IMG/VR virus record: IMGVR_UViG_3300045988_042083
Coordinates: 1-40,199 of that record
Reading direction: 5' to 3' (one strand)
DNA from: a virus
Length of the DNA stretch: 40,199 nt
Made by a program: the position numbers and the translations under genes. Shown piece by piece: positions 17,743 to 37,763 of the stretch. Each line of letters opens with the position of its first letter. Position 1 is the first letter of the stretch. The notes beneath the pieces were generated by a model. The model did no database searches, had not been told where the DNA came from, and was given only the letters and a program-made list of their open reading frames with translations.

Positions 17743-17772
17743 TTGACAGAAGTAAACCTCGTGTGGTATAAT
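17743..17772 (+). promoter_or_regulatory. Promoter P2: TTGACA-N18-TGgTATAAT, bracketed by an 11-bp inverted repeat.
   Basis: CTTGACAgaagtaaacctcgtgTGGTATAAT. Inverted repeat CCTCGTGTGGT (17757-17767) / ACCACACGAGG (17784-17794). Confidence 0.75.
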
Positions 17773-17812
17773 AGTTATGGAGCACCACACGAGGTACGGT
17801 AGGAGGGTTAAC

Positions 17813-18091: not shown

Positions 18092-18102
18092 GAGGAAAAT
18101 GA

Positions 18103-19544: not shown

Positions 19545-19555
19545 GGAGGTAACTA

Positions 19556-19738
19556 GTGAAGCGGAAAACAAATCCATGCCCAAAAGCTGATAAGTGCATA
19601 CACGCTGATGAATGTATACCCGGAGTATTTCGTAGCGAGTACTTGTGCTTTGATAGTGGCAAATATGTGGATAAGAAAGTCACGGACGGTGAAGACCGTA
19701 GGAAAATCAAGAAGAAAGCGAGGTGGACGCGGAAATGA
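19556..19738 (+). CDS. 60-aa Cys-containing basic protein.
   Basis: GTG start after TGAGGAGGTAACTA. Confidence 0.5.
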   Translation: MKRKTNPCPKADKCIHADECIPGVFRSEYLCFDSGKYVDKKVTDGEDRRKIKKKARWTRK

Positions 19739-19935
19739 GAGCGTTAGCATACATAGTTGCGTTTATATGTGGATTGTTTATCCGCAGCGCAATTTCGGCG
19801 TTGAATGGTTGGGGTTATTCAATAAATGGCATAGACCTGTTATGTGGGTTAGTCTGCATAGTTATGGTGTGGTCATTCAAAGGCGTATTCTTGACGAATA
19901 AGAAACCGAATAAGAAACGGAGGAACAACAAATGA
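19735..19935 (+). CDS. 66-aa small membrane protein with two predicted TM helices.
   Basis: ATGA overlap with the previous gene. MRALAYIVAFICGLFIRS...IDLLCGLVCIVMVWSF, then a basic tail. Confidence 0.55.
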   Translation: MRALAYIVAFICGLFIRSAISALNGWGYSINGIDLLCGLVCIVMVWSFKGVFLTNKKPNKKRRNNK

Positions 19936-20891: not shown

Positions 20892-21136
20892 GAAAGCATG
20901 GCAAGCATAGGAAATACACCGTTGAAGAAATCCTTGAAGAGGCGCAGGTGTTTATAAACAGCAATATGACTATGCGGGAGGTAGCGGCTAAATTCAAGAT
21001 GCCTAAGTCTACGTTGGCATAGCATCTCCGGTACGCTCTAGTACGCATAGACTACAGCCTGTGGCTGGCGGTGGACGATAGGTGTGTTGAAAACATACAC
21101 ACATACAAGCGATACGGAGGTGGTACAAATGGCTGA
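20888..21136 (+). pseudogene. SpoIIID-like small HTH regulator interrupted by an in-frame TAG at 21020-21022. The uninterrupted product is 44 aa; readthrough would give 82 aa.
   Basis: ...MREVAAKFKMPKSTLA*HLRYALVRIDYSLWLAVDD.... The frame stays open to a TGA at 21134-21136, which overlaps the SNF2 start. Confidence 0.5.
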
Positions 21137-22529: not shown

Positions 22530-22534
22530 AGGAC

Positions 22535-22564
22535 TTGACAAGAGGCATATTGCTGTGGTATAAT
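22535..22564 (+). promoter_or_regulatory. Promoter P3: TTGACA-N18-TGgTATAAT.
   Basis: CTTGACAagaggcatattgctgTGGTATAAT. Confidence 0.8.
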
Positions 22565-22584
22565 GGTAATGGAGGCGGTAACGC

Positions 22585-22974
22585 ATGAAAGAATTGGCGA
22601 GGACATGCGCCTATTGTGGCAAGCCGTTCCTGTGTGAACGTGCGTCAATATACAAGGTTAAGGCGCGCAGACACGTAAAACGCATGTGTTCGTACACGTG
22701 CTGGACTAAATATAAGGAGGAATTAACAGTGAGCAAAGCAAAAATCAAGAACAGACTGAGGGAATACCGCGACCGTTCGCGGCTAACCTTGCAGGAAGTC
22801 AGCATTCTGACGGGCTACGATGTAACTACTATCAGCCGTCACGAATCTGGGCAGCGCAGCCTGTCGGACGAGGCGATGAAGAAGTACGCTGCGCTTTACA
22901 AGGTTGAAACTCATGAACTGCTGGACTTGAGAGGTAATGATGACGATGAACAGTGTGCTGGAACAGGCGAATGA
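22585..22974 (+). CDS. XRE-family HTH regulator with an N-terminal Cys-cluster extension (129 aa).
   Basis: CAYCGKPF...CSYTCW, then LREYRDRSRLTLQEVSILTGYDVTTISRHESGQRSLS. Confidence 0.75.
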   Translation: MKELARTCAYCGKPFLCERASIYKVKARRHVKRMCSYTCWTKYKEELTVSKAKIKNRLREYRDRSRLTLQEVSILTGYDVTTISRHESGQRSLSDEAMKKYAALYKVETHELLDLRGNDDDEQCAGTGE

Positions 22975-24751: not shown

Positions 24752-25369
24752 TTGAGCATAAAGCAAAGATGTGAAGTGAAGCCTTGTTCATATGACGATG
24801 TTAAGCCATTTATACTCAACGTCCATTATGCACACACTATGCCTACTTCTATAATGTATCGGTATGGGTTGTACGACTGTGATAGATTGGTGGGAGTGGT
24901 TACATATGGCAGAACCGCAGCGCCCGCTCCAAGTGTCGGAATGTTTGGGAAGCAGGAAAAGCATCGCGTGATAGAGCTTAATCGGTTGGTTTTATTGCCC
25001 GAATACAACGGCGACAACTATACGTCTTACTTAGTGAGTCATTCGTTGAAGATGTTGCCACGGGGGCTTGGCGTTATTTCTTATGCTGATTTAGGCGGTC
25101 AGGGTCACACAGGTGGTATTTACAGGGCATGCAACTTTCTGTACACCGGAACTACCAAACCGCGCACTGATGCCGCTAGCGTAAGCGGGGGTCATGCTAG
25201 ACATTACCAAGGTGATTTAACTAAGCGTCAATTAAGAACTGCCAAGTGCAGGTATGTAACGTTCACTGGTACAAAAAGGGATAAACGAATGTTGAGAAAG
25301 ATGCTTAGGTGGGAAGTGAAACGGTACACCCCAAATGAAAGGACGAACCATGATAACAGTAGTCGGTGA
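24752..25369 (+). CDS. Mom-like (adenine-N6 acyl-modification family) protein; tentative.
   Basis: PFILNVHYAHTMP, VIELNRLVLL, VISYADLGGQGHTGGIYRACNFLYTG. This matches my recollection of the pattern annotated as the Mom family. TTG start. Confidence 0.45.
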   Translation: MSIKQRCEVKPCSYDDVKPFILNVHYAHTMPTSIMYRYGLYDCDRLVGVVTYGRTAAPAPSVGMFGKQEKHRVIELNRLVLLPEYNGDNYTSYLVSHSLKMLPRGLGVISYADLGGQGHTGGIYRACNFLYTGTTKPRTDAASVSGGHARHYQGDLTKRQLRTAKCRYVTFTGTKRDKRMLRKMLRWEVKRYTPNERTNHDNSSR

Positions 25370-25766
25370 GCGTGCACCAACAAGCAAAGACAAATTATCG
25401 AAGCCCAAGGAGCTTAAGGGTGTTAAACCCCTGTTTTCGGTAAAATGGGGTGGCATAACAACATGCCAGGTGTCTGTGAAAGACACTGACGTATGGGTAA
25501 ACCATCATGACTGGTGCAGTGTTTCATTTTACGGTGGTACAGTAAAATCCAACCACCATTACGGATACAGCGATGCTTTTACAGCACCGACTGTTAAGGG
25601 TGATGCGTGGATAAAGTTGACGGGCTTGCTAAACATGCGACCTGTCGAAGCGTTGAGAATGGTAACAATAGAAACCGAACTTAGCGATGACAGCAGATTT
25701 TGTTGTGACGATACACGTATGTTTGAAGATGTTATATCCAAATTGCACAAGGAGGGATATATGTGA
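25350..25766 (+). CDS. 138-aa hypothetical protein.
   Basis: ATG 25350 follows AAAGGA. ATG 25335 is an alternative start. Confidence 0.55.
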   Translation: MITVVGERAPTSKDKLSKPKELKGVKPLFSVKWGGITTCQVSVKDTDVWVNHHDWCSVSFYGGTVKSNHHYGYSDAFTAPTVKGDAWIKLTGLLNMRPVEALRMVTIETELSDDSRFCCDDTRMFEDVISKLHKEGYM

Positions 25767-26191
25767 TGGATACATCATTACTCCACTATTGGGTTGAGGT
25801 TTTGGGGCTTGAGTCGTGGACTATCAAGTTGGTGGTGGATTGCAGCCCTAACGACATGACGCTGGCAAACGTAGCTGGTGAGGCAGAGTGGGACGCGACC
25901 AGCAGGTCAGCAATTATTCGAATTCTTGACCCCAAGGATTATGGCGACAGAATAGTGCCGTTTGACCCGGAAAAGACCTTAGTACACGAGTTACTGCATC
26001 TGAAATTCGCCATGCTTGACGAAAGCGGTGATAACCTTAGAGATAGGTTAACCCACCAAATAATTGACGATTTAGCCAAGGCATTGGTGAGAGCGAAGAG
26101 AGATGCTTCTCCCGGAGAAAAGAAGAGTTATCTTGTAGTAGACGGTGTTGCGAAGAAACCTACAAAGGAGGATTCCGATGAAGTACATTGA
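25766..26191 (+). CDS. HEXXH-motif protein (putative SprT-like zinc metallopeptidase fold, 141 aa).
   Basis: TLVHELLHLKF. TGATG start overlap after AAGGAGGG. Confidence 0.5.
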   Translation: MDTSLLHYWVEVLGLESWTIKLVVDCSPNDMTLANVAGEAEWDATSRSAIIRILDPKDYGDRIVPFDPEKTLVHELLHLKFAMLDESGDNLRDRLTHQIIDDLAKALVRAKRDASPGEKKSYLVVDGVAKKPTKEDSDEVH

Positions 26192-26369
26192 GCCGGGTTG
26201 CTTGTATTGTAGCAAATGCATCTTGGTTACGCCAGTACACGGGTATGGTGATGCACCGTATTACAAATGCAGCGATGACAGAAATCCCGAAGAATGCGAA
26301 GTGTGCAAACACAACATCAACAAGAATTGCGCGAAAGGAAATACAAAGCATGAGATACATGGGCGGTAA
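26178..26369 (+). CDS. 63-aa Cys-rich (zinc-binding-like) protein.
   Basis: RBS AAAGGAGG. CLYCSKC...YYKCSDD...CEVCKHNINKNC. Confidence 0.55.
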   Translation: MKYIEPGCLYCSKCILVTPVHGYGDAPYYKCSDDRNPEECEVCKHNINKNCAKGNTKHEIHGR

Positions 26370-27098
26370 GTTTAGACAGAGCAAGGCGATAGTACAATGT
26401 TTAAGACCATATTTCAACGAAAACACAATGTATGTTGAGCCGTTCTGTGGTGGAATGTGGTCTGCATGTCGTGTAATTGACGAATTGCATCCGAAGTCTG
26501 TTATTCTTAACGACATTAATAAACCGTTAATGTTGCTGTGGGATAAATGTATAAAGGACGGTGTAGATTGGTTACCCACGGATTCTGAAGTTGTGGAGCG
26601 CGAGTATCAGAATTATCGGTTGGTGCAAGACGAAAACGACCCGTTAACTGCATGGTATGGCATAGCACTATCTTTCGGCGGTAAGTGGTTTGGTGGTGTC
26701 GCGCGAAACTCAAAAGATGACCACACACACACGGGTATATTGCAGAACGCAAGTCTGTGTATAAGAAAGTCGATGCGTTAGCACGAGCGACTCCGAAACT
26801 TGTGAATGTAAGTTATGAACATCTGGACATACCGGACGGCGCAGTGGTATACTGCGACCCACCATACGCCGGGCGGACTAAGGCACACCATTTTGATAGC
26901 TGGGACGATGACGCTTTTTGGCAGTGGGTGCGCGACCTGTCAATGCGGTGTACAGTTTTTGTGTCGTGCTTCAACTGTCCGCCCGATTTTGAAACGGTGT
27001 ATAGCTGGGGCGATACGGTGGTGGGGCATCTGAACAGCAGAGGAACAGACGGTACATGTGAAAGGTTGGTGAGATATGATGCCGCTGAAAAAAGGTAA
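26350..27098 (+). pseudogene. dam: Dam-like N6-adenine DNA methyltransferase split by a frameshift inside a (CA)5 tract.
   Basis: N-terminal MRYMGGKFRQ...VEPFCGG (26350-26781). C-terminal ...VVYCDPPYAGRT... (frame of 26757-27098). Removing one CA unit fuses both frames into a 248-aa ORF. Confidence 0.75.
26722..26732 (+). repeat. Dinucleotide tract C(AC)5 at the Dam frameshift point.
   Basis: gatgacCACACACACACggg. Confidence 0.9.
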
Positions 27099-27222
27099 AT
27101 CACAGAAGACAATCTCCAGTAACATTGCCACTCTCCGCAAAGAGGGCAAGCCCGAAAAACAGGCTATCGCCATTGCTATGAGCAAGGCGGGTAAATCCAA
27201 AAAGAAGAAAGGTGGAAAATGA
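27076..27222 (+). CDS. 48-aa lysine-rich protein.
   Basis: [48 protein letters not shown]. Its stop abuts the next ATG. Confidence 0.5.
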
Positions 27223-28365
27223 ATGGCAAAGAATACTAAATGTTTATTCCCGGACGGTGTAAGCACAGAGGGTATGGTAAGCGTGTCCCAGTTGCAGACA
27301 TTCATGAGCTGCCCCAAGAAATGGACGTACAACTATGTCGAGAATTTAACACCAAGGGTAGAACGCCCGTATCTGTCTATCGGAAAGCTCTGTCACAAGG
27401 GTATGGAAACTGCCATGCGGTGTAAGTGGGTACACGAGCATGCAATACATAAGGACATGTCTGATTTTACGCATATGTTCTATGTGGACGTGTTGAACGA
27501 GGCTCTCCTTGCTATGGAGAAAGAGTGGCACGAATATATGGATAGCAATTGCTTCTTACAGGAAGAGTTACCAGCACAGGAACAGATACTTGCTGACGCT
27601 ATACAGGTGTTCAAACAGGCTTTCTGGGAGTTCGGCTTCGAAAAATACGAAGTAGTGACCCTGTATAAAGATGGTAAGGCAATTCCCGCTTTGGAGCTGC
27701 ACTTCAAAATACCCTGTCCCGGCAGTAAGGGTCTGCATGGTTATATTGACGCGATACTCCGGGACAAAGAAACGGGGCAGGTTTGGTGTACTGATTACAA
27801 GTTCCGAAAGAGCCTTTCGCCGGACGAGGACGAAGCCTTTAACATACAGAATGCTGTGTACACCAGAGCGTGTGCAAAGATGGGTATACCCATTACAGGC
27901 ACTATGACGTGGCAGCATGTCAATACGCCAGCCGCAGACCCCGCACAGCTGAAAAACGGCGCGTTCAGCCGTGCAAAAATCAAGACTACATGGGAACATT
28001 ATGCAGAAGTTGTGACAGCGGCTGGCGGTGACCCCAACGAATACGAGGAAGAAATGAAGCCAAAGTTGGCTGACATTGAATGGTTCAGACCGACCTACGA
28101 GTACCGCAATCCCGCCACTATTGACAGGATTTGGGAGCAGTCGATAGTTCCTGCAAGCTGGGCAATTAGGAGGTCATATAATAACCCCCGTAATCCTCGG
28201 TTTATTTACCCTTGGAATTGTAAAATGTGTCAGTACGGCAATCTGTGCCAAGCCGAATTACGCGGTCACGATGCTGATTTTCTTAGAAGCACCGAGTACA
28301 CCAAGCGTACCACCAGAAGAGCCGACAGCCCCAACAACGACACAACTGCAGCACCCGCGACTTAA
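27223..28365 (+). CDS. PD-(D/E)XK exonuclease, Cas4/RecB-like, with Cys ligands for an Fe-S cluster.
   Basis: SCPKKW N-terminal Cys. GYIDAILRD...WCTDYKF. C-terminal CKMCQYGNLC. Confidence 0.8.
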   Translation: MAKNTKCLFPDGVSTEGMVSVSQLQTFMSCPKKWTYNYVENLTPRVERPYLSIGKLCHKGMETAMRCKWVHEHAIHKDMSDFTHMFYVDVLNEALLAMEKEWHEYMDSNCFLQEELPAQEQILADAIQVFKQAFWEFGFEKYEVVTLYKDGKAIPALELHFKIPCPGSKGLHGYIDAILRDKETGQVWCTDYKFRKSLSPDEDEAFNIQNAVYTRACAKMGIPITGTMTWQHVNTPAADPAQLKNGAFSRAKIKTTWEHYAEVVTAAGGDPNEYEEEMKPKLADIEWFRPTYEYRNPATIDRIWEQSIVPASWAIRRSYNNPRNPRFIYPWNCKMCQYGNLCQAELRGHDADFLRSTEYTKRTTRRADSPNNDTTAAPAT

Positions 28366-28392
28366 GAGAAGCCTCTTCTTTGCGCTCCGTTG
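28365..28392 (-). repeat. Dispersed motif copy (type II); left arm of the 28381-28454 long hairpin.
   Basis: Minus strand reads CAACGGAGCGCAAAGAAGAGGCTTCTCT. Confidence 0.75.
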
Positions 28393-28442
28393 GGTATTCA
28401 GCACGTGGGTGGTATTCGTGCCCGTCCATGGGGCTGATATGG

Positions 28443-28489
28443 CAACGGAGCGCAGAGGAAACGCCAAGGAAAGCAAGAGAGAACTCGCC
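28443..28489 (+). repeat. Two adjacent dispersed motif copies (type I).
   Basis: CAACGGAGCGCAGAGGAAACGCC, then CAAGGAAAGCAAGAGAGAACTCGCC. Confidence 0.75.
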
Positions 28490-28552
28490 CTTATATGTAG
28501 ATGGTGAACGAAGCGTTCACCGTTGCTCATATGGGTGATGTCAATAAACCAC

Positions 28553-28582
28553 TTGACAGGAATAAACCTCATGTGGTATAAT
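28553..28582 (+). promoter_or_regulatory. Promoter P4: TTGACA-N18-TGgTATAAT. A ~50-nt duplicate of P2.
   Basis: CAATAAACCACTTGACAggaataaacctcatgTGGTATAATGGTAGTGGAG. Confidence 0.8.
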
Positions 28583-28603
28583 GGTAGTGGAGGAGGTGAT
28601 AGC

Positions 28604-29161
28604 ATGACAAGCAAGGAGGAATTTAAATCCATCGCGGAACTTATTCACCGCGATGGTATTACCGATTTGATGAAGTGGATTGAGGGCACGGATTTCTACA
28701 CTGCACCAGCATCGACCCGGTTTCATGGGGCGTATGAGGGTGGACTTGTAGAGCATTGCGTAGCAGTGTACCGCCGTCTGGACGAGTTGAATGACTTCTA
28801 TGACGAGGTAAACGCAACTCCCGAAACCATTGCAATTGTGGCGCTGTTTCACGATTTGTGCAAAATTGGGACGTATAAGACCGAAATGCGCTGGCGAAAG
28901 GACGCGAACAACCAGTGGGAGCAATACCCCACTTACAAGCGCGATGAAGATTTCAAGTTTGGTGGTCACGGTTCGAAATCGCTTTATCTGGTGCAGAACT
29001 TCATCAAGTTGACCCCCGAAGAGGCTATTGCGATTAACTGCCACATGGGGCAGTGGGACGCGACTACATACAGCGATGTTTCTTCGGCGTTCGAAAGTTG
29101 CCCGTTGGCATGGGCATTACATGTGGCTGACGAAGCCGCAAGCTACCTTGATAAAACATAA
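28604..29161 (+). CDS. HD-domain phosphohydrolase (185 aa). Candidate dATP-clearing enzyme (DatZ analogue).
   Basis: STRFHGAYEGGLVEH, ALFHDLCK, GGHGSKS, LHVADEAAS. ATG follows GGAGGAGGTGATAGC. Confidence 0.7.
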   Translation: MTSKEEFKSIAELIHRDGITDLMKWIEGTDFYTAPASTRFHGAYEGGLVEHCVAVYRRLDELNDFYDEVNATPETIAIVALFHDLCKIGTYKTEMRWRKDANNQWEQYPTYKRDEDFKFGGHGSKSLYLVQNFIKLTPEEAIAINCHMGQWDATTYSDVSSAFESCPLAWALHVADEAASYLDKT

Positions 29162-29173
29162 GGAGGTGTAATT

Positions 29174-29428
29174 ATGGAAAACAACGTCATAGGTGCAAAG
29201 ACCTGCCACGTATGCAAGCGGAGTTTCCCGCTCATTTTCGAAAGACATTACGTGGTAAGAGATGTAACGACATCTGGGCTGGTTGCCACGTTCGGCAATT
29301 CCGAACCGCAGATACACGATGCTTTTGACTGCCCGCATTGCGGCTGTCAGAACATAGTGGGTGACCGTCTGAGAGAGTACGACCCCAATGCACAGCAGAA
29401 TGACCCCGGAGAGGAGGACAACGCATGA
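29174..29428 (+). CDS. 84-aa zinc-ribbon protein.
   Basis: CHVCKRSF...CPHCGCQN. RBS AGGAGGTG. Confidence 0.6.
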   Translation: MENNVIGAKTCHVCKRSFPLIFERHYVVRDVTTSGLVATFGNSEPQIHDAFDCPHCGCQNIVGDRLREYDPNAQQNDPGEEDNA

Positions 29429-29571
29429 GAAAGCTAAGAAGAAAAATCGCGCACTACAAAATGCAGCGAGAGGGTATTCAGCACCCGAACCGTAAGCAGA
29501 CAGTGTACAGGCACGGGCAGTTTGCGGGGTACACAGATTCCTATTTCGCACAGCACTGGAGGGAGTATTGA
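29425..29571 (+). CDS. 48-aa basic hypothetical protein.
   Basis: ATGA overlap upstream and TGATG overlap downstream. MRKLRRKIAHYKMQREGIQHPNRKQTVYRHGQFAGYTDSYFAQHWREY. Confidence 0.45.
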   Translation: MRKLRRKIAHYKMQREGIQHPNRKQTVYRHGQFAGYTDSYFAQHWREY

Positions 29572-30347
29572 TGGCTGGATACAGAATTACACAGGACATC
29601 TTCACGTCTAAGGTGAACATTCTGATTTATGGCGACCCCGGTGCGGGTAAAACCCATCTTGCGGGTACGGCGCAGGACGTGCCGGAAATGCAGAATGTGC
29701 ATTTCTTCAACATTGATGGCGGTCTGATGACGCTTGCGTCAAGAAATGGCGATATCACAGCAACGGATATTCACAGCGTTGGAGAACTGGAAGCCGAATT
29801 TCTGAAGATTGCTAACCACGACCCCGAATACGAGGGCATAAAAACAGTGGTTATCGATAACATTTCAGAGCTTCAGACGCTGGCTCTTGAAGAGGCTACG
29901 ACCCGCGAATATGCAAGTCGCGTCAAGAAAGACAAAAACTACACCATAGACGAAGTATTTCTGGAGGATTATGGTGTGGCGGGCAAAAAGCTTGCACGTA
30001 TCCTTAGGGGCTTCAGAGATTTGCCGCTGAACGTCATCTATTTGGCGCACAAAAAGGACAAAATGCGCAAGGGTACGAACACCCTTGAAGCGACCTTGCC
30101 GAATTTGACCGACAAGCTTGCCACAGCGGTGTGCGGCTACATGGACATAGTGGGATACCTTTATACAGCTGACGAACAGGTTGAACACAACGGGCAGTAC
30201 ACCACCGTAATGCACAGATACCTACTGACACAACCGATGAATAATTACACCGCGAAGGTGCGCAATGATAAAGTTGCTGAACGCCTCGGTGCTTTTGTAA
30301 AAGACCCAACATTCACTGACATATTCAATGCCTATAAAGGCGTGTAA
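29571..30347 (+). CDS. AAA_24 / Sak4-like RecA-fold ATPase.
   Basis: Walker A ILIYGDPGAGKTHLA, Walker B VVIDNISEL. Confidence 0.75.
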   Translation: MAGYRITQDIFTSKVNILIYGDPGAGKTHLAGTAQDVPEMQNVHFFNIDGGLMTLASRNGDITATDIHSVGELEAEFLKIANHDPEYEGIKTVVIDNISELQTLALEEATTREYASRVKKDKNYTIDEVFLEDYGVAGKKLARILRGFRDLPLNVIYLAHKKDKMRKGTNTLEATLPNLTDKLATAVCGYMDIVGYLYTADEQVEHNGQYTTVMHRYLLTQPMNNYTAKVRNDKVAERLGAFVKDPTFTDIFNAYKGV

Positions 30348-30362
30348 TCAAGGAGGACAAAT

Positions 30363-30884
30363 ATGAATAACCCGTTTATGAACAACACAGCAAACTCTAC
30401 CCCCGCTCCCGTGCCTAACACCGGAGCACCGATGCCCGGTGCGGTCAACGATATGAACGCAGGTTTCGAAGTCGACCTCACCAACGTACAGGAATCTGCA
30501 TACGCTATCCCGGACGGTGTTTACAAGGCTAAATGCGTAGACGTAACGCAGGACGTATCGAAGAGCGGCAACCCGATGTTCACTTGGGAGTTCGAAATCG
30601 CCGAGGGTGACTACAGAGGCAAGACTTTCAAGAGTTGGACTGCTATCACCCCCGCTGCAATGTGGAAAGTTGCTGAAACAGTGCAGGCTCTCGGCGTGGG
30701 TCAGACCGGACAGGTGGTTAAATTTAAAAAGGGCGATGTGGTAAACAAGCTTTGCGGTATCGTCATGGAGCAGGACGAGTACAACGGCAGAGCCACATCT
30801 AAGATTACTAGAGTAATCTCCCTTGAAGAGATGGCAAACATGGCGAACACAACGAACGCCTCAAATCCTGTTGCACCCCGGTGA
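30363..30884 (+). CDS. DUF669-like (ssDNA-binding-type) protein.
   Basis: IPDGVYKAKCVDV...SKSGNPMFTWEFEIAEGDYRGKTF. Canonical position after AAA_24. Confidence 0.65.
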   Translation: MNNPFMNNTANSTPAPVPNTGAPMPGAVNDMNAGFEVDLTNVQESAYAIPDGVYKAKCVDVTQDVSKSGNPMFTWEFEIAEGDYRGKTFKSWTAITPAAMWKVAETVQALGVGQTGQVVKFKKGDVVNKLCGIVMEQDEYNGRATSKITRVISLEEMANMANTTNASNPVAPR

Positions 30885-30890
30885 TAAAGT

Positions 30891-32660
30891 ATGCTGGTAA
30901 ACACAATAGAGGGGCTTGAACATGTGATGCCCCGGCTGTTAGCTTGCACCGACCCTTGCGTGGATACCGAAACTACTGGCTTGTCGATTTACGGCAACGC
31001 CAGTAGGGCGAGGGATAAAGTTATCGGCATCTCGGTTGACGTTGGCGAAGAAGCTTTCTATTTTCCGTTTCGCCACCTACAGGGGGTAAATTTGCCGATG
31101 GGGTGTATGGAGTTCTTTCGCCCGTATCTTTCAGACCCTAATAGGACTTATGGCGGGTGGAATTACAATTACGACCTCCACATGATGGCTTTCGATGGTA
31201 TTGACATCGCGCCAAATTTTGAAGACGCGATGCTGGCTATGCACCTATTCAACGAGAATGAACCCGATTTCAAGCTAAAGCCAACTGCCGACAGATATCA
31301 CATCGGCGATGGTTCTTTGCAAGAGTCGATACTTGAGGACAAGGTGTTCAACGAGTGTCAGCGGCTGGGGCTGGAGTGCAGCAAATCACCAAGAGCACCG
31401 AACAACGTTAAATCTATGATGTACGTATTGCCCCCGGAGGACGTAGAACCTTATGCTTGTGATGACGTGCGGCTTACACGTCAAATCTTGGATTTGCTGC
31501 GACCCGCATTAAAGGAACAGGGGTTGTATGATATCTGGAAACAGGTTAACTACTATTCTTACATAGTCACGTTGATGGAACATCGCGGTATGCATGTTGA
31601 TGTTGACATGATAAAGCGATACCAGATAGAAGCAGTAGACCACCTCGCGGACGCGCAGAAGCGGCTGAATGAAGCGGCTGGGTTTGAGTTAAACCCAAAT
31701 AGTTCAAAAAAGGTTTGTGAATTTCTAGGCGTGGAATCATCAGCGGCTGAAAAGCTTGTGGAGGTGATAGACGCGGGTGGGAAAGATGCCGAAAATGCTA
31801 AATTGGTGCAGGAAGCTAGAGGTTGGAAATCAGTGGACAGCAGGTATTACACACCTTATCTCCAGTTGATTGACGAACACGACACGCTCCACTGTTCGCT
31901 GAACTTAATCGGTACGTACACCGGACGGTTATCATGCACCAACCCGAACCTGCAAGCAGTGGCGAAGCATACAGATATCTTCAAAGTCAAGGACGTGTTC
32001 ACAGCACGACCCGGTTTTACAATGATACAGGCGGACTACAAGCAAGCGGAAATGCGTCTTGTGACGCATTACACCAAAGACCCCATCATGAAAGAACTAA
32101 TCGAATCTGACGCGGATTTGCACTCGGCAACGGCTGAAAGGCTGAATATACCGCGAAATGCAGCTAAGCGCATTAACTTCTCCGTTATATACGGCATCGG
32201 GTACAAACACCTTGCCAGCAATCTTCGGGTAGAAGAGAGCGTAGCCAAGGATTATCTCGATAAGTACCACAATCTCTACCCCGGCTTTAAGAAGCTCATG
32301 TACAAATGTGAAGACTTCGCCAAAGCTAATGGGTATATTAGGCTGTGGACGGGACGAATGCGGCATTTCAACACGCCGGAGTGCGACCCCCATAAGGCAA
32401 TGTCAAACTTAATACAGGGCGGCGTTGCTGAAATTGTCCGCGTGGCAATATCCAGACTTTATCCCGCTATTCGGGATATTGGAGGGAACATGCTACTGCA
32501 GGTTCACGACTCAATCATCTTTGAAGTACCCGATGATAAACTCCAGATAGCCTTACCGACCATTAAGATGGTTATGGAGGATTATGACTTCGACCCCAAA
32601 CCCGGTGTCGATATCGAATATGGCAAATCATGGGGTACATTCGAAAAGTGGAAGCCATAA
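30891..32660 (+). CDS. Family-A DNA polymerase with a 3'-5' exonuclease domain and no 5' nuclease domain (589 aa).
   Basis: ExoI VDTETTGL. Motif A ADYKQAEMRL. Motif B RNAAKRINFSVIYG. Motif C LQVHDSIIFE. Confidence 0.9.
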   Translation: MLVNTIEGLEHVMPRLLACTDPCVDTETTGLSIYGNASRARDKVIGISVDVGEEAFYFPFRHLQGVNLPMGCMEFFRPYLSDPNRTYGGWNYNYDLHMMAFDGIDIAPNFEDAMLAMHLFNENEPDFKLKPTADRYHIGDGSLQESILEDKVFNECQRLGLECSKSPRAPNNVKSMMYVLPPEDVEPYACDDVRLTRQILDLLRPALKEQGLYDIWKQVNYYSYIVTLMEHRGMHVDVDMIKRYQIEAVDHLADAQKRLNEAAGFELNPNSSKKVCEFLGVESSAAEKLVEVIDAGGKDAENAKLVQEARGWKSVDSRYYTPYLQLIDEHDTLHCSLNLIGTYTGRLSCTNPNLQAVAKHTDIFKVKDVFTARPGFTMIQADYKQAEMRLVTHYTKDPIMKELIESDADLHSATAERLNIPRNAAKRINFSVIYGIGYKHLASNLRVEESVAKDYLDKYHNLYPGFKKLMYKCEDFAKANGYIRLWTGRMRHFNTPECDPHKAMSNLIQGGVAEIVRVAISRLYPAIRDIGGNMLLQVHDSIIFEVPDDKLQIALPTIKMVMEDYDFDPKPGVDIEYGKSWGTFEKWKP

Positions 32661-32748
32661 CAGAATACACCTCCTGTCGCAGAGAGGGTATCTTCCTTGC
32701 ACAGGAGGGTATACATACGGGCTTACATACTCCCACAACACAGACGTG

Positions 32749-32779
32749 CAACGGAGCGCAAGAGAGATACCTCTCCGTG
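32749..32779 (+). repeat. Dispersed motif copy in the polA-HAD spacer, with its own ACGGAG/CTCCGT hairpin.
   Basis: CAACGGAGCGCAAGAGAGATACCTCTCCGTG. Confidence 0.75.
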
Positions 32780-32816
32780 CACGCGATGCCGGACACCTAT
32801 TAAGGAGGTGGTAACA

Positions 32817-33221
32817 TTGATTATAGCGGTGGATTTTGATGGTGTTCTCTGCGACCACCAATTTCCAAATATCGGTGCGCCGAAATACGAAGTCATCTCG
32901 TTGGTGCGGCAGCTGATTGACCTTAAGCAAGAGGTAGTTCTCTGGACATCGAGAACAGATGCCGAACTGCAAAATGCGGTAGATTGGTGTGACAATTACG
33001 GCTTACATTTTTGCGCCGTGAACGAGAACGCGCCAAGCAACATCGCCAAATATCGGGAGAAATACCCGAATGGAACACGAAAGGTATTTGCTGATGTTTA
33101 TGTTGATGACCATTCACTTGGCTACATAATCAACAGAAAAGCGGACACAACAAAAAGCATAACAGCACAGTTAAGTGCTCTTATAACAGTAATCAAATCG
33201 ACACAGGAGGAAAAGGTATGA
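32817..33221 (+). CDS. HAD-superfamily phosphatase-like protein (134 aa), possibly a deoxynucleotidase.
   Basis: TTG start after TAAGGAGGTGG. Motif I IAVDFDGVL, then VLWTSR and a YVDD-type motif. Its stop overlaps the purZ ATG. Confidence 0.55.
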   Translation: MIIAVDFDGVLCDHQFPNIGAPKYEVISLVRQLIDLKQEVVLWTSRTDAELQNAVDWCDNYGLHFCAVNENAPSNIAKYREKYPNGTRKVFADVYVDDHSLGYIINRKADTTKSITAQLSALITVIKSTQEEKV

Positions 33222-34315
33222 ACACAAACAGAGGTAAGATGACAGTAGTTGTCGGCGGACAGTACGGCAGCGAGGGTAAGGGTGCGATTGTAAGACACAT
33301 CGCGGACGAATATCAGGTGCATGTTAGGGTTGGTAGCCCTAACGCAGGACACACTATCTACTGGAACGGCGAGAAACACGTCATGCAGTCTATCCCTTGT
33401 GGGTGGATAAACCCCGATGCAAAGATAGTGATTGGTAGAGGTGCGCTGCTCAACATGAAGCAGCTCATGTCCGAACTGGAACACATCGAGAGATACTACC
33501 CCGACTTCAAAAAGCGTCTTTACATAGACGCTAAGGCGGGTATCCTTGACGAGAAATTCCACCAGCAGGAGGGTGGGGTAGACGGCGAAATGCACCGCAG
33601 GATAGGCTCTACTGGTGAGGGTGTGGGTGTTGCCCGTGTTGCCCGTATAAACCGTGACCCGGAGCAGTTCCACATGTTTGAAAGCGTAGCTGACGAATAT
33701 GGGCTGTCCAAGTGCATTACCGACAACACACCCGAATTGCTTGCCAGATGGCAGGGCGATGGTATGAATATACTGATTGAGGGAACACAGGGGTCTGCGC
33801 TTTCTCTGCTCCACAGTTTTTACCCGTACTGCACCAGCATCGACACCAATGCGGCAGGTATCATCTCCGAGGTAGGCATCGCCCCGTCAAGGGTAACTGA
33901 TGTATTGATGGTGGTACGCACATTCCCCATCAGAGTTGCAGGAAATTCTGGACCTATCGCGAATGAAACCACATGGGAAGAAGTGTCAAAGCTGGCGGGA
34001 AGACCTGTCACCGAGAAGACCACTGTTACGCACAAGACCCGCCGTGTGGCTTTCTGGGACGATGCCGTATTCGAAACGGCTTGTCTGCTGAATGAGCCGA
34101 CAGAAATTGCGCTCACATTCGCCGACTACATCGACCCCGACCTTGCTAATATATCTGGAAATGTACCGTCTATCGAAGCACTGCAGAGTTCCAAGCTTTC
34201 TGCTTTCATCGACAGCTGCTCTGCCGAATTAAAGGAAAAGCTTCGGTACATCAGCACAGGCGCAGATTCCGTAATCAACATCAACAAGCCGGAGGCACAG
34301 AACGATGGCGAATAA
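33218..34315 (+). CDS. purZ: PurZ-like N6-succino-2-amino-2'-deoxyadenylate synthase (PurA superfamily, 365 aa).
   Basis: GGQYGSEGKGAIV, GSPNAGHT, GTQGSALSLLHSFYPYCTSIDTNAAG, FPIRVAGNSGP, TTVTHKTRRVAFWD. Confidence 0.8.
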   Translation: MNTNRGKMTVVVGGQYGSEGKGAIVRHIADEYQVHVRVGSPNAGHTIYWNGEKHVMQSIPCGWINPDAKIVIGRGALLNMKQLMSELEHIERYYPDFKKRLYIDAKAGILDEKFHQQEGGVDGEMHRRIGSTGEGVGVARVARINRDPEQFHMFESVADEYGLSKCITDNTPELLARWQGDGMNILIEGTQGSALSLLHSFYPYCTSIDTNAAGIISEVGIAPSRVTDVLMVVRTFPIRVAGNSGPIANETTWEEVSKLAGRPVTEKTTVTHKTRRVAFWDDAVFETACLLNEPTEIALTFADYIDPDLANISGNVPSIEALQSSKLSAFIDSCSAELKEKLRYISTGADSVININKPEAQNDGE

Positions 34316-34745
34316 TGTGAAATATGTTGATTTCGTTCTTGACGAGGGTGCACACCGCCCCGTCAAGCAACACACAGGCGATGCGGGTTGGGATTTGTAC
34401 ACCAGCGAAACCTGCGTTATCGAACCCGGTGAAACCAAAGATGTGCATACAGGCGTGAGAATGCGCATGCCGCCTTGCCTCTTCGCCCGTATCACGGGCA
34501 GGTCATCGAGCCTCCGCAAGCACAACATTCTAGTGAACGAGGGCATTATCGACAACGGCTACACGGGCGAGTTATTTGTCTGCGCTCACAATCTCGGAAA
34601 TCAGCCCATCACTATCGAAAAGGGTATGCGGATTGCACAGGTACTTTTCCACACCATAGAAGATGTGCGTTGGAGCGAGGTTGACGAATTAAAACCCTCC
34701 GCAGATAAGCGTGGGGACGCTGGTTTCGGTAGTACTGGAAAGTGA
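34305..34745 (+). CDS. dut: Trimeric dUTPase.
   Basis: GDAGWDLY, GRSSSL, GIIDNGYTGEL, RGDAGFGSTGK. Confidence 0.9.
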   Translation: MANNVKYVDFVLDEGAHRPVKQHTGDAGWDLYTSETCVIEPGETKDVHTGVRMRMPPCLFARITGRSSSLRKHNILVNEGIIDNGYTGELFVCAHNLGNQPITIEKGMRIAQVLFHTIEDVRWSEVDELKPSADKRGDAGFGSTGK

Positions 34746-34793
34746 CGGCAATCGGGCTTGAGTAAGAGGACTCTGTAAGTAGTTGATAGTGGA

Positions 34794-34826
34794 ACAATAA
34801 CCCGATAATAACCGGACAATAACAGG
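34794..34826 (+). repeat. 3 x 11-nt tandem repeat ending within the RBS of the next gene.
   Basis: ACAATAACCCG ATAATAACCGG ACAATAACAGG, then AGG. Confidence 0.85.
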
Positions 34827-34834
34827 AGGACAAC

Positions 34835-35236
34835 ATGAAGAACTGTAAGGAATGTGACGATTTTATGTGCGGCGGACAGGGTTCAGACAATGTTTCTATG
34901 ACATGTGGAAACACCACGCGTGAATTTAAGGATTTCGGCACTGGTGCAATACGCGAGGATAAGACCGGAAAGGGCAGGTGCGACCTGCTCCCACCGTGCG
35001 CTCTCATTCGCCTTTCTAAGCATTTCGAAAAGGGTGCGACAGACCACGGAGAACGCAACTGGGAAAAAGGCATACCGATGCACAGCTTCTTGGATTCCGC
35101 ACTTCGTCACCTGTTCAGGTATCTTGACGGAATGGACGATGAAGACCACCTTTGCGCAGCCGCTTGGAACATAATATGCGCCATGTGGACAGAAGAAAAG
35201 CACCCCGAAATGCAAGATATCCCCACGCGCAGGTGA
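34835..35236 (+). CDS. mazZ: MazZ-like dATP/dGTP diphosphohydrolase domain protein (133 aa).
   Basis: RCDLLPPCALIRLSKHFEKGATDHGERNWEKG...LDSALRHLFRYLDGMDDEDHLCAAAWNIICAMW. Matches my recollection of the dGTP_diPhyd_N/DUF5664 pattern. Confidence 0.65.
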   Translation: MKNCKECDDFMCGGQGSDNVSMTCGNTTREFKDFGTGAIREDKTGKGRCDLLPPCALIRLSKHFEKGATDHGERNWEKGIPMHSFLDSALRHLFRYLDGMDDEDHLCAAAWNIICAMWTEEKHPEMQDIPTRR

Positions 35237-35240
35237 GCCA

Positions 35241-35546
35241 ATGAGCAACCGCAACAAACGATTGGAATATGATGGGGTAGTGCAACCGATACTGCGCTAC
35301 CTCAATTCTCTGCCGAATACCAAGGCAATCAATATTCACGGGGGCGTTTTCTGTGAGCGAGGAACGCCAGACATCATAGGGTGCATTGATGGGCGTACTA
35401 TACTGCTAGAATGCAAGAGAAGCCCAACGGAAGCGGCAGAAAAAATACAGGAGTGGCGCATGGCGGAGTGGCGCGGTGCAGGTGCAATCGTGGCTAGGGT
35501 TGACGATGTTAGCCAAGTCAAAGAATTGCTTGAGAAGAACAAATAA
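35241..35546 (+). CDS. VRR-NUC-type PD-(D/E)XK nuclease (101 aa).
   Basis: RGTPDIIGCIDGRTILLECKRSP...QEWRMAEWRGAGAIVARV. Confidence 0.65.
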   Translation: MSNRNKRLEYDGVVQPILRYLNSLPNTKAINIHGGVFCERGTPDIIGCIDGRTILLECKRSPTEAAEKIQEWRMAEWRGAGAIVARVDDVSQVKELLEKNK

Positions 35547-35569
35547 GGGTGGGGATTTATCCCCCACCC
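35547..35569. terminator. Bidirectional intrinsic terminator between the convergent plus and minus transcription units.
   Basis: GGGTGGGGAtttaTCCCCCACCC, flanked by AAATAA on one side and TCGTTTATT on the other. Confidence 0.8.
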
Positions 35570-35573
35570 TCGT

Positions 35574-35899: not shown

Positions 35900-36469
35900 T
35901 TAGCACATCTTAACCCCGATATGCTTCGCCTTTTTCTTGTATTTTTCATGCATTTCGGGTTGACACAAGTAGATGGCAGATAAGTCGTAGTCTGTTGAAC
36001 TAAGTTCAATCCGCTTACGGCACACCTTTTTCAACTCTTGGTCTACGCATTCCACAAGCTCACCTATTTTGTGCGCCGCAGCTATCTCACCAAGCTCCAT
36101 GAGGTCACAATATGCCTTTTCATAAAGCTTTTTGGTTTCGACTTCCCACTCGTACCAGCGGTTGAAACCGTCACGGATAGCCCTTTTCTTGGTGTTTGCG
36201 TCAACGTCATGGCGCATGTACCCATACCATGATGCGGGCATTACTTCGGGGTTCTTCGCCGTTTCTTCGGGTAAAAGCTTTCCGAAATGGTTTACATAAT
36301 ACCTAACGATGCCCCGGTGTTCGGCAAATTCACACATCGCATGGTACTCATGACAACGCTTGAAGCCGTGCAGATTGAGAAAGTCGTAATACTCCGCAAA
36401 CTGGCTGTGGAGCATAACGCCCTCAATCATGTGGCTGCTTATTTTCGCGAAGATTTCTGCTACTGTCAT
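35900..36469 (-). CDS. 189-aa ferritin-like four-helix-bundle protein; tentative.
   Basis: RBS GGAGGTG. HSQFAEYYDFLNLHGFKRCHEYHAMCEFAEHRGIVRYY resembles ferritin helices A and B. Later segments YEWEVE and ELVECVDQELKK. Confidence 0.5.
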   Translation of the reverse strand: MTVAEIFAKISSHMIEGVMLHSQFAEYYDFLNLHGFKRCHEYHAMCEFAEHRGIVRYYVNHFGKLLPEETAKNPEVMPASWYGYMRHDVDANTKKRAIRDGFNRWYEWEVETKKLYEKAYCDLMELGEIAAAHKIGELVECVDQELKKVCRKRIELSSTDYDLSAIYLCQPEMHEKYKKKAKHIGVKMC

Positions 36470-36629
36470 TGTTCAACACCTCCAGAATTTGTATCAGCAA
36501 GGAAATAATCACGTCATCTTTCGACTTTAAGCTGAGCAGTTTTTCGTTAATCGTCACATTCTCGATGTTAGCTGCTAAGTTAGCCGAGTTGATAGCAAGT
36601 ATTTCCCTGTAATAGGTATTCTCGTCCAT
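36423..36629 (-). CDS. 68-aa hypothetical protein.
   Basis: ATG overlaps the upstream TGA (TGATG). Overlaps the next gene by 47 nt. Confidence 0.4.
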   Translation of the reverse strand: MDENTYYREILAINSANLAANIENVTINEKLLSLKSKDDVIISLLIQILEVLNNDSSRNLRENKQPHD

Positions 36630-37033
36630 CAAATCTTCTCCACTACAATACCCATGTTGGTTATCGCGGAGGGTGCACCGCCAAGAACTACTGTAATCTC
36701 GCTGTTGTTGTCGCAGCACTTGTTTCTGATAAGCGCACGAATATTGAGGTTGACTGTGTTGCCGATAGCGGTGTTAGTAGCTACGGCTGTTGCACCGGGA
36801 ACGGGTGCGCCGTCCTTAAACAAGGTAACGCTTACGCCACCCACTACAGACGGAGCAAGAGAAATGTTAACGCTCACGTTGTAGTAACCCTCACTACAAG
36901 TTGTGATACCATTACCGGAAATATCAAGGTCACGTCCAAAACGTCTGACGATACCGCCCACCGGAATTGTGCCGTTGATAGGCACAGTACCAGCGTTTGT
37001 GTTTACTGTGTAAATTGCGCTTTTGCAACTCAT
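36629..37033 (-). CDS. BclA C-terminal-domain-like (TNF/C1q-like jelly roll) protein with no collagen repeats (134 aa).
   Basis: EGYYNVSVNISLAPSVVGGVSVTLFKDGAPVPGAT...NMGIVVEKI parallels the BclA CTD segment FYKITVIANT..LGGLTIQVNGVPVPGTG...IIIEKV. RBS AAAGGAGA. Confidence 0.65.
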   Translation of the reverse strand: MSCKSAIYTVNTNAGTVPINGTIPVGGIVRRFGRDLDISGNGITTCSEGYYNVSVNISLAPSVVGGVSVTLFKDGAPVPGATAVATNTAIGNTVNLNIRALIRNKCCDNNSEITVVLGGAPSAITNMGIVVEKI

Positions 37034-37059
37034 ACCAATTCTCCTTTCACAATAGAAAA

Positions 37060-37083
37060 GGCGTGGAGCAGACACCCCACGCC
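37060..37083 (-). terminator. Intrinsic terminator (possibly partial) after the 215-aa gene.
   Basis: Minus strand reads GGCGTGGggtgtctgctCCACGCC followed by TTTTCTATT. Confidence 0.65.
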
Positions 37084-37115
37084 CTGTTTAGCCCAGACTT
37101 AAAGTGTCTTAACGA

Positions 37116-37763
37116 TTAGATGTTGCAGCAACCATTCTGGCGACCGCCGCAGAACGGGTTCATACCAGCGTCATAGGCGAAGCTTGTCGGATAGCGAACT
37201 ACACCGCAAAGTGCGCTCTGAAGCTGGAGCTGGTTAATCTGGTTCTGCATGTCTGCCATGCGGTTTCCGCAGATAGCGTCCAGAATTTTCTGGGTCTGCG
37301 CTGTGGTGTTTGCGTTGATTGCCGCGGTAGACTGGGCTATGTTGAAATTAGTTCCATCAATAGCCCTCTGAGTTTCGCAGCAGCACTGCTGGGCATCGAA
37401 CCTGTTCTGGTTGATACCAGCGTTGACAGCCGCGAACCCCTGGCAGAGGTCACGCTGGGTCTGATTTGCCAGCTGTGCGGACTGGTAACCAAGCTGACAG
37501 ATGGCGTTGTCGGTCTGACGAGCGATAGCTGCCTGACTGTCGTTCAGTCTGCCTACAGCATTCTCCAGATTGTTGAAGTTCATGCTGTTGCAAAGACCAG
37601 CCTCGGTTACAGGCTCACCGTTACAACCACGATTGCCGAAGCCGTTACCACCCCAGCCGAAAATCATGGCGAACAGGATAATGAGCACCCACCAAGAATT
37701 ACCCCCGCCGCACATACCGTCATTGGATACCGCAGCGATGTCGGAAAGACTGTAGTTTTCCAT
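37116..37763 (-). CDS. 215-aa N-terminally membrane-anchored, Cys-, Gln- and Asn-rich protein of unknown function.
   Basis: TM segment WWVLIILFAMIFGWGG. About 15 Cys, including QQCCCETQ and a C-terminal CGGRQNGCCNI. Confidence 0.6.
   Translation of the reverse strand: MENYSLSDIAAVSNDGMCGGGNSWWVLIILFAMIFGWGGNGFGNRGCNGEPVTEAGLCNSMNFNNLENAVGRLNDSQAAIARQTDNAICQLGYQSAQLANQTQRDLCQGFAAVNAGINQNRFDAQQCCCETQRAIDGTNFNIAQSTAAINANTTAQTQKILDAICGNRMADMQNQINQLQLQSALCGVVRYPTSFAYDAGMNPFCGGRQNGCCNI

Follow-up and report, generated by a model that had tools for sequence, protein, structure and literature searches.

A PurZ-like synthetase of neither characterised subfamily, with a nucleotide-pool module, in a probable Clostridia siphovirus: predicted 2-aminoadenine DNA

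The question raised by the 40,199-bp viral DNA analysed here (IMG/VR record IMGVR_UViG_3300045988_042083; the whole stretch is referred to below as the window) is whether a 365-amino acid (aa) open reading frame (ORF) in its replication region, taken in a preliminary description for a PurZ-type homologue of adenylosuccinate synthetase (PurA), belongs to a pathway that replaces adenine by 2-aminoadenine (Z) in phage DNA. PurZ is the enzyme with which synthesis of this base begins. Family membership, residue pattern, gene order, module conservation and host signals were all computed here. The product of this purZ-like ORF (the query) is a member of the adenylosuccinate synthetase superfamily. 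Judged from its sequence, it is not a cellular PurA and belongs to neither of the two synthetase subfamilies characterised so far (PurZ and PurZ0), and the explanation that best accounts for the locus, a Z-pathway synthetase acting with a nucleotide-pool module to give Z-containing DNA, is probably correct.

The translation of the purZ-like ORF contains GGQYGSEGKGAIV, GSPNAGHT, FYPYCTSIDTNAAG, FPIRVAGNSGP and TTVTHKTRRVAFWD, with all of the motifs from which membership of the PurA superfamily had been proposed present, and matches PF00709 (Adenylsucc_synt; E=9e-52, 176.6 bits vs a cut-off of 27) and PHROG 1211 (‘2-aminooxy adenylosuccinate synthetase’; 1e-73). At 67 aa below E. coli PurA (432 aa) it has the archaeal-like length, about 65 aa shorter, noted in the preliminary description, and the long insertions of bacterial PurA are missing, as they are from Pyrococcus horikoshii PurA. 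A sequence search of PDB gave P. horikoshii PurA (5k7x/2d7u; 1e-49) as the best match, followed by PurZ0 of phage Archimedes (7vf6; 1.6e-46) and the PurZ proteins of phages phiVC8 (4e-38) and S-2L (7e-27). Structure prediction, suggested earlier as a check, returns a PurA/PurZ fold (AlphaFold AF2 model; predicted local distance difference test score, pLDDT, 96; predicted template-modelling score, pTM, 0.93), with a template-modelling (TM) score of 0.84 to both 5k7x (root-mean-square deviation 2.1) and 7vf6 and of 0.77–0.78 to phiVC8 and S-2L PurZ. With archaeal PurA the query has in common its length class, most of the core and the Asp that binds GTP.

Published functional residues were mapped onto the query through an alignment with E. 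coli PurA (reference sequence identical to PDB 1kjx), a segment of P. horikoshii PurA, five PurZ0 and five PurZ references. The residues of phiVC8 PurZ that form the pocket for the 2-amino group of deoxyguanosine monophosphate (dGMP), F12, S14 and T262 (bioRxiv 10.1101/2025.10.22.683976; PMC8342488), correspond to Y16, S18 and T268 of the query and to W11, D13 and G298 of PurA, and the query residues are the same in type as in all ten PurZ/PurZ0 references. The Ser reported earlier at the catalytic Asp of GDEGKGK is thereby located: Ser18 aligns with E. coli Asp13, which is kept by 99% of cellular PurA (PMC12884076). The alteration described for the TTGRxRRxGW loop also holds, TTVTHKTRR aligning with (A)TTGRRRR, with G302 changed to His, R303 to Lys (K273) and R304 to Thr. 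Arg303 and Arg304 of the PurA loop touch the 2'-OH of inosine monophosphate (IMP) and aspartate, R303 being the 2'-OH contact in E. coli (PMC8342488), and neither is retained in the query; Lys is also found at the R303 position in PurZ0 and phiVC8 PurZ, and PurZ proteins as a whole have Lys or Leu here. The query thus does not sit inside cellular PurA with its IMP-binding residues intact, having Ser for Asp13 and Lys for R303. In PurZ, changing the Ser back to Asp is reported to restore use of IMP. A two-residue insertion after IRV (AGNSG) is common to the query and PurZ0 and distinguishes both from archaeal PurA. On these residues dGMP is predicted as acceptor, with moderate to good confidence.

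The donor pocket is of a different type from that of PurZ. D303 of the query, in the motif LTFADY, corresponds to E. coli D333 and to the Asp of all PurZ0, whereas phiVC8 and S-2L PurZ have N297 and Q308, which clash with the guanine N2 (2-amino group) (PMC8342488). Within the P-loop, E19 is as in PurA/PurZ0 (Thr15 in PurZ), T300 stands where S-2L PurZ has Asn (N305), so that the pocket is not ATP-type, and the STG motif around E. coli S414 is retained. The only PurZ-like residues here are F301 and Y304, which resemble the adenine-stacking pair of PurZ and set the query apart from PurZ0. Because D303, E19 and T300 make a pocket like that of PurA/PurZ0, GTP rather than ATP is the predicted donor, a choice that is somewhat favoured. 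The P-loop itself reads GSEGKG, compared with GSEAKG in PurZ0, and the motif opens with G, not with the D of PurZ.

These features recur in the closest relatives. An exhaustive phmmer search of 1.84 billion 50%-identity cluster representatives gave 652 matches at E<=1e-30; the best 150 of these 652 have Ser (148) or Gly (2) at the Asp13 position and never Asp, mostly within G-S-E-G-K-G. LTFADY is the majority state in the environmental Ser-type radiation, and the ATP-type N/Q occurs in the classical PurZ branch and in few others besides. A word-indexed search identified 6,701 homologues, the best 120 of which are 66–94% identical to the query, with many on 35–50 kb contigs and one named ‘MAG TPA: adenylosuccinate synthetase [Caudoviricetes sp.]’. 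Among the GenBank phage records of the collection, none encodes a protein closer than 36%. In some environmental relatives 40–44% identical to the query (P0132 and P0145, also P0158, P0180 and P0229), a P-loop of PurZ type (D-x-Q-F/Y-G-S-T-G-K-G or G-S-C-G-K-G) occurs together with LTFADY, the GTP-type donor motif; given these mosaics, signature positions of PurZ and PurZ0 are found in mixed combinations outside the characterised clades. By sequence, the query appears to belong to an extensive lineage, uncharacterised so far and distinct from both PurZ and PurZ0.

The purZ-like gene lies, as had been proposed, in one apparent operon with nucleotide-pool enzymes: nine co-directional genes (HD, Sak4-like, DUF669, PolA, HAD, PurZ-like, Dut, DUF5664 and VRR-NUC-like, in that order; Table 1) are bracketed, at ~28.55–35.57 kb, by a promoter-like site and a terminator-like hairpin. 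The promoter call is a consensus match only; the site is followed by GGAGGAGG and then the ATG at 28604, at which the start of the HD gene was placed, and likely marks the start of the unit containing the purZ-like gene. The hairpin closes the + strand unit and faces convergent − strand genes. The HAD stop codon overlaps the purZ-like ATG, and the Dut-like ORF, overlooked in the preliminary description, overlaps the purZ-like stop by 11 nt; PolA is just upstream, as in PurZ0 phages.

Two of the neighbours have homologues in PurZ0 phages (Gordonia phage Archimedes, Ghobes and Arthrobacter phage Wayne-like). The Dut-like protein, of the trimeric dUTPase family, shares 43.6% identity (E=1e-34) with the characterised DutZ, Ghobes gp55 (AOE44406.1), identities to DutZ being 44–47%; of the 1,469 phage records in which a dUTPase matched, those with the lowest E-values are from PurZ0 phages such as Archimedes, Parvaparticeps, Theresita and Sapo, and canonical PDB dUTPases score <=77 bits. 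All 98 PurZ0 genomes have dutZ and 85/98 have DmtZ (NDT-like) (PMC12884076). PurZ0 actinophages, which are without DatZ and MazZ, use DutZ, DUF5664-1 (phage Wayne) and DmtZ, and DutZ and DUF5664-1 convert dATP and dGTP (the deoxyadenosine and deoxyguanosine triphosphates) to dAMP and dGMP with a roughly ten-fold preference for dATP (PMC12884076). The same conversion to monophosphates, of dATP and dGTP (and dUTP), is predicted for the Dut-like protein. A ‘MazZ-like’ gene had been reported 520 bp downstream of purZ; a gene does start there, but by its PF18909 score and homology to the C-terminal part of gp47 of the Arthrobacter phage Pumancara (30.6% identity, E=7e-11) it is a member of the DUF5664 family, and it also matches PHROG 801 (dATP/dGTP pyrophosphohydrolase; 1.4e-19). 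MazZ identity was rejected on the lack of a BLAST match to S-2L MazZ, the lack of a PDB match and a domain that is PF18909, not PF03819 (MazG); the gene is therefore a functional analogue of MazZ at best, and the closest kit is that of PurZ0.

The HAD protein, which matches the BT0820-family HAD phosphatase model NF046079 and carries the DxD motif AVDFDGV, is a candidate (deoxy)nucleoside monophosphate phosphatase. The HD protein (PHROG 28876, metal-dependent phosphohydrolase) is a possible nucleotide hydrolase; it was considered as a DatZ and rejected, with no BLAST match to S-2L or phiVC8 DatZ, no PDB sequence match and only the generic PF01966. PolA, a family A polymerase with a 3'-5' exonuclease domain, is a candidate replicase for Z-containing DNA.

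Conservation of this module was examined in 80 IMG/VR viral loci encoding relatives, binned by identity to the query. At >=60% identity (20 loci) HAD and PolA are each present in 20, Dut and DUF5664 in 19, VRR-NUC-like in 17 and HD in 14, the one locus that lacks Dut and DUF5664 being a truncated contig; HAD is directly upstream of the purZ-like gene in 20/20 of these loci and Dut adjacent to it in 19/20, and the contig of a 75% relative (39.9 kb) has the same gene order. The 23 loci at 45–60% identity retain PolA in 22, Dut in 14, VRR-NUC-like in eight, DUF5664 in six and HAD in four, with HD in none. Below 45% (37 loci) only Dut (19) and PolA (12) remain from this set, HAD, DUF5664, VRR-NUC-like and HD all being at zero, and DmtZ-like (10) and PurB-like (6) genes are found.

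Two of the more distant loci show variations on the module. In a 49% relative (L012) a NUDIX gene (9068-9538, +) directly follows the purZ-like gene in the place of Dut, which suggests non-homologous replacement of a deoxynucleoside triphosphate (dNTP) pyrophosphatase; this contig also has a T1-type Dam (PF05869). A 58% relative on a 13 kb contig of a metagenome-assembled genome (MAG; L013) has PurZ-like, Dut, one more gene, VRR-NUC-like and then PurB (11170-12579, +), a full-length adenylosuccinate-lyase homologue (Lyase_1, 2.4e-27) with the motif GSSAMPHKRNP that recalls the PurB gene of phage Ghobes. PurB together with the pool genes would be the pattern expected if PurB processed the product of the synthetase, with dATP removal and dGMP supply coupled. 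The same contig gives a weak match to DUF1599 (‘nucleotide modification associated’) at 10407-11051.

From this pattern we infer substrates, donor, the HAD and HD roles and the presence of Z in DNA as follows. The Ser-type synthetase would carry out the PurZ/PurZ0 reaction, from dGMP, Asp and GTP to dSMP (N6-succino-2-amino-2'-deoxyadenylate); by analogy with the actinophages, the Dut-family and DUF5664 enzymes would remove dATP and feed dGMP to it. The HAD phosphatase would presumably dispose of dAMP or another deoxynucleoside monophosphate, and the HD hydrolase and proofreading family A polymerase would complete the predicted Z module, which would replace much or all of the adenine by 2-aminoadenine in the DNA of a Clostridia-infecting siphovirus. 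Formation of dSMP from dGMP by the PurZ-like enzyme can be proposed with good confidence; substantial Z substitution of virion DNA is predicted as rather likely.

Several results weigh against this interpretation, beginning with the profile scores and the tree. The query reaches 247.6 bits on NF038379, the model for PurZ (succino-amino-deoxyadenylate synthase), and misses the cut-off of 300, which is passed by all seven calibration proteins, characterised or annotated PurZ/PurZ0 from GenBank phage records (Ghobes 346, Archimedes 325, Pumancara 368, Hiyaa 374, phiVC8 397, S-2L 350 and Barton 421 bits; PurZ0 range 325–374). Its score on the archaeal-type PurA equivalog NF003295 is slightly higher (269.1 bits), although also short of the cut-off there (368); the seven controls reach just 131–190 bits on this model. 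TIGR00184 is failed as well (209.5 vs 395.55 bits), and two clade mates of the query score like it on the NCBIfam models. Falling under both NCBIfam cut-offs, the query is therefore intermediate and outside both curated families. In neighbour-joining (NJ) trees rooted on E. coli PurA, for which E. coli and P. horikoshii PurA were the only two Asp-type outgroups, P. horikoshii PurA branches first and 100/100 bootstraps recover the Ser-type sequences as a single group; the query falls outside the PurZ reference clade and outside that of PurZ0, in both cases again in 100/100, and the branching order of the query, PurZ0 and PurZ lineages is split 28/35/37. Identities are 33–37% to PurZ0, 28–34% to PurZ and 35–36% to archaeal PurA. 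Profile hidden Markov model (HMM) and phylogenetic placement, the check named in the preliminary description, thus puts the protein below both PurA and PurZ cut-offs and outside both Z-synthetase clades; of the label ‘PurZ-type homologue’, the superfamily and the substrate-site residues stand, but not the PurZ profile cut-off, the PurZ clade or an ATP-type donor pocket.

Gene content adds further points. Ordinary phages commonly carry HD proteins and proteins of the Dut family, and some non-PurZ Streptomyces phages also rank high as matches to the Dut-like protein. The PurZ phages (phiVC8, S-2L and Acinetobacter phages) are characterised by DatZ (YfbR-like HD), MazZ (or DUF550-DUF5664) and DpoZ. 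DatZ and MazZ gave no BLAST or tblastn match in the window or the 80 related viral loci, and DmtZ none in the PurZ-flanking region of the window (28.5–35.5 kb) or in loci at >=45% identity; the window has the conserved HAD phosphatase and an HD protein instead. An attempt to assign PolA to DpoZ-1 or DpoZ-2 found it equidistant from the two, at 23–25% identity to each (Ghobes and Pumancara on one side, phiVC8 and Barton on the other; ~24% to that of the PurZ phages) and no nearer than ~25% to either.

The window also encodes two enzymes directed at adenine N6. A Mom-family gene (PF25680, 1e-30) is absent from the close relatives examined, its sole other match being a distant one in L148. A D12-class N6-adenine methyltransferase (Dam) is interrupted by a frameshift that lies after motif I (FCGG) and before motif IV (DPPY); the homologue is a single frame in four relatives (L098, L111, L131 and L140), and the copy in the window is therefore a pseudogene or an assembly frameshift. 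Neither gene was taken as a decisive contradiction of Z, because E. coli Dam and M.EcoRI methylate Z sites in vitro, at >=10-fold lower efficiency (PMC8342488). Counted over the whole window, GATC (2 observed vs 156 expected), GGCC (0 vs 130), CTAG (30 vs 156) and GANTC (38 vs 156) are strongly avoided and AAGCTT is over-represented (35 vs 10.7). A Dam specific for GATC would find almost nothing to methylate in a window with just two such sites. Avoidance of GATC and GGCC as evidence against Z was set aside as neutral: restriction protection by dZ is only moderate and BstYI (RGATCY) cuts dZ DNA (PMC12944874), and GGCC has no A.

The last point concerns Ser-type homologues in bacterial chromosomes. 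A scan of GTDB (one genome per species) found 476 QYGSEGKG-type genes, and only the three closest (51–58% identity, on short MAG contigs) have the phage module. Chromosomal neighbourhoods were analysed for 72 of the other 77 kept loci, and a conserved three-gene arrangement is present in 40–41/72, where the surrounding 10 kb contain neither phage nor Z-cluster genes. An M78/IrrE-like peptidase (best PADLOC match CapP; e.g. L058:5580-7727) is followed by a protein of ~535 aa in which an N-terminal P-loop kinase (AAA_18, ~190–260 aa) is fused to a PurA-like domain (e.g. L074:9428-11041), and then by DUF7002 (e.g. L048:11011-11718; examples from loci L016–L092). Many of these loci are on large chromosomal contigs, up to megabases, and cultured carriers include Xanthomonas (L037, L041), Lysobacter (L032), Marinobacter (L060), Trinickia (L049) and Cellvibrio. 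The operon sometimes adjoins restriction or AAA-ATPase genes, and is neither a Z-cluster nor a purine operon; literature searches found no relevant paper on it or on DUF7002, and it could be a nucleotide-based defence or stress system. PADLOC defence families gave no match for the query, HD or DUF5664 proteins. With Ser-type genes in an unrelated chromosomal operon, Ser for Asp13 is not by itself diagnostic of Z genomes, contrary to its use as a sign of them in the preliminary description, and assignment of the query therefore rests on residues and context combined.

These chromosomal genes give some room to the idea that the whole Ser-type group catalyses a different reaction (on a ribonucleotide, or yielding a signalling or toxic nucleotide) and that the phage copy serves counter-defence or another modification: the query shares with the fusions the QYGSEGKG P-loop, LTF(A/V)DY and ~40% identity, as close as its ~35% to PurZ0. 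However, the fusions have a signature of their own (TSTT-x-R-x-RR, with the R303 equivalent kept, and a longer insertion after IRV) as well as the N-terminal kinase, and a non-phage context in which Dut, DUF5664 and PolA neighbours are lacking. The query, PurZ0 and PurZ are set apart from them by the TTVT-x-K-x-RR-type loop, and the query clade is always found with the phage nucleotide-pool module, in one relative with PurB, making a common different reaction quite unlikely. It is hardly credible that the gene is a PurA-type auxiliary that boosts AMP/dATP from IMP in a phage with canonical DNA. Archaeal PurA is among its best sequence and structure matches and gives the top NCBIfam score, and the GTP-binding Asp and STG motif are kept; yet such an enzyme would have lost an Asp13 that is near-invariant in cellular PurA, would carry the PurZ/PurZ0 states Thr at G298 and Lys at R303, falls 99 bits under the PurA equivalog cut-off with 0/150 nearest representatives having Asp, and is surrounded by proteins resembling dATP/dGTP-degrading enzymes, which oppose raising dATP.

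Partial use of Z was also weighed, i.e. that dSMP and dZ are made but the genome is only partly substituted, or that Z has a different role, for instance in transient protection or in manipulating the pool. This is suggested by the lack of a dedicated dATP triphosphohydrolase (DatZ) and of a proven Z-selective polymerase, there being no DatZ, MazZ or DpoZ orthologue, and Z clusters expressed in E. coli gave 14–44% substitution (PMC12944874, Table 2); the adenine-directed Mom and Dam genes fit it too, as does avoidance of GATC/GGCC if this shows continued restriction exposure. PurZ0 actinophages, however, likewise lack DatZ/MazZ and rely on DutZ/DUF5664 (PMC12884076), Dut and DUF5664 are kept in 19/20 close relatives, and site avoidance is neutral; partial or other use of Z is accordingly considered unlikely. 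A Z-pathway synthetase with its pool module remains the preferred explanation.

The host of this gut-type phage is most likely a member of Clostridia, since strong GGAGG-type Shine-Dalgarno sites precede most ATG-start genes in the window and both TerL and endolysin have relatives there: TerL is nearest to Butyrivibrio virus Ceridwen (52%) and a human-faecal phage contig (52%), then to Flavonifractor phage Chenonceau (44%) and Faecalibacterium phage FP_Lugh (42.5%), and endolysin homologues at 65–70% identity are named as Oscillospiraceae MAG proteins. The Clostridia-like signals noticed earlier are borne out by these relatives. The three short MAG contigs with the module in the GTDB scan are labelled Bacteroidetes, Paludibacter and Psychracetigena; these labels were treated as binning artefacts and not as hosts, given the Shine-Dalgarno sites and the Clostridia-phage relatives of TerL and endolysin. 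No prophage of the query clade was found in the same scan. The hosts published for Z phages belong to Pseudomonadota, Cyanobacteriota and Actinomycetota (PMC12884076), those of PurZ0 phages being Actinomycetota, and literature searches found no report of PurZ or Z phages in Bacillota/Firmicutes/Clostridia. The locus suggests that the hosts of Z-DNA phages include a further phylum, reached by way of a synthetase lineage not yet characterised.

If this lineage is active, Z genomes would extend to Clostridia phages of animal guts and, with >100 cluster representatives at ~70% identity, many on 35–50 kb contigs, may be common there; common Z genomes would bias virome sequencing and restriction-based and nanopore analyses. 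In sequence, structure and profile scores the enzyme is intermediate between archaeal PurA and PurZ0/PurZ, and it is a useful test case for how specificity evolved from IMP to dGMP as substrate and from GTP to ATP as donor. Exclusion of adenine nucleotides is a candidate role for the conserved HAD phosphatase and the HD protein, and for annotation ‘Ser instead of Asp’ alone is unfit for calling Z genomes. A bolder proposal, tentative and rather doubtful at present, is that of a third, abundant, PurA-proximal and GTP-using lineage of Z synthetases, recognised by GSEGKG, TTVT-x-K-x-RR and LTFADY, with its own accessory kit (HAD phosphatase, DutZ-like, DUF5664 and HD; no DatZ, MazZ or DmtZ) and producing Z DNA in siphoviruses of gut and rumen Clostridia. 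Were it true, Z genomes would be common in animal-gut viromes and extend to Bacillota, and the Mom-family enzyme might further modify N6 of Z in this phage.

The window is a complete metagenome contig (ENA ERZ27229646, k119_329370) and has a siphovirus-type gene layout (Table 1). The replication module includes PrimPol, an SF2 helicase, a PD-(D/E)XK nuclease and VRR-NUC, a composition similar to that of S-2L, which has a VRR-NUC protein too. No tRNA genes were found in the window, and megablast of 24.7 kb of it against 50,697 phage records identified no similar record.

Table 1 Position and supporting matches of features in the window
Feature	Position	Strand	Matches and remarks
Structural genes (tail protein, tape measure, major tail, major head, portal, large and small terminase)	171-15426	-	
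Replication and nucleotide module	15576-35546	+	
ThyX, 319 aa	19932-20891	+	PF02511
Mom-family gene	24752-25369	+	PF25680 1e-30; PHROG 1384 4e-42
D12-class N6-adenine methyltransferase (Dam), split	26188-26781 and 26757-27098	+	
Promoter-like site (predicted)	28553..28582	+	TTGACA-18 nt-TATAAT, extended TG; 12/12 consensus positions
HD-domain phosphohydrolase, 185 aa, first gene of unit	28604..29161	+	PF01966 2e-6; PHROG 28876 4e-56
Sak4-like AAA_24 single-strand DNA-annealing ATPase	29568..30347	+	PF13479 2e-23; PHROG 124 1e-42
DUF669 SSB-like protein	30363..30884	+	PF05037 1.5e-6; PHROG 378 (single-strand DNA-binding protein) 2.7e-13
Family A DNA polymerase with 3'-5' exonuclease (PolA), 578 aa (gene caller)	30924..32660	+	PF00476 2e-66; PF01612 5e-8
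HAD-type phosphatase, 134 aa	32817..33221	+	NF046079 2e-26 (below cut-off); PHROGs 24386, 1238
Ser-type PurA-family synthetase, PurZ-like, 365 aa	33218..34315	+	ATG start, AGGAGG upstream
Trimeric-dUTPase-family protein, DutZ-like, 146 aa	34305..34745	+	PF00692 1.5e-28
DUF5664 protein (dATP/dGTP diphosphohydrolase N-terminal domain family), 133 aa	34835..35236	+	PF18909 3e-21, 75.7 bits vs cut-off 27
Small endonuclease-like (VRR-NUC-like), last gene of unit	35241..35546	+	PHROG 93 (endonuclease) 1.4e-11
Bidirectional intrinsic-terminator-like hairpin	35546..35571	.	Stems 9-11 bp, 7 G-C pairs; T-rich tails on both strands
Conserved ORFs past terminator	35900-36469, 36629-37763	-	
Lysis-containing block		-	Endolysin with Amidase_2 and SPOR domains

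The best domain match of ThyX starts at about residue 179, so that a long stretch at the N terminus matches more weakly or not at all. Past the terminator, several conserved − strand ORFs have no family match or belong to PHROGs of unknown function, one of them encoding a Gly/Asn/Cys-rich protein of 215 aa (PHROG 16490).

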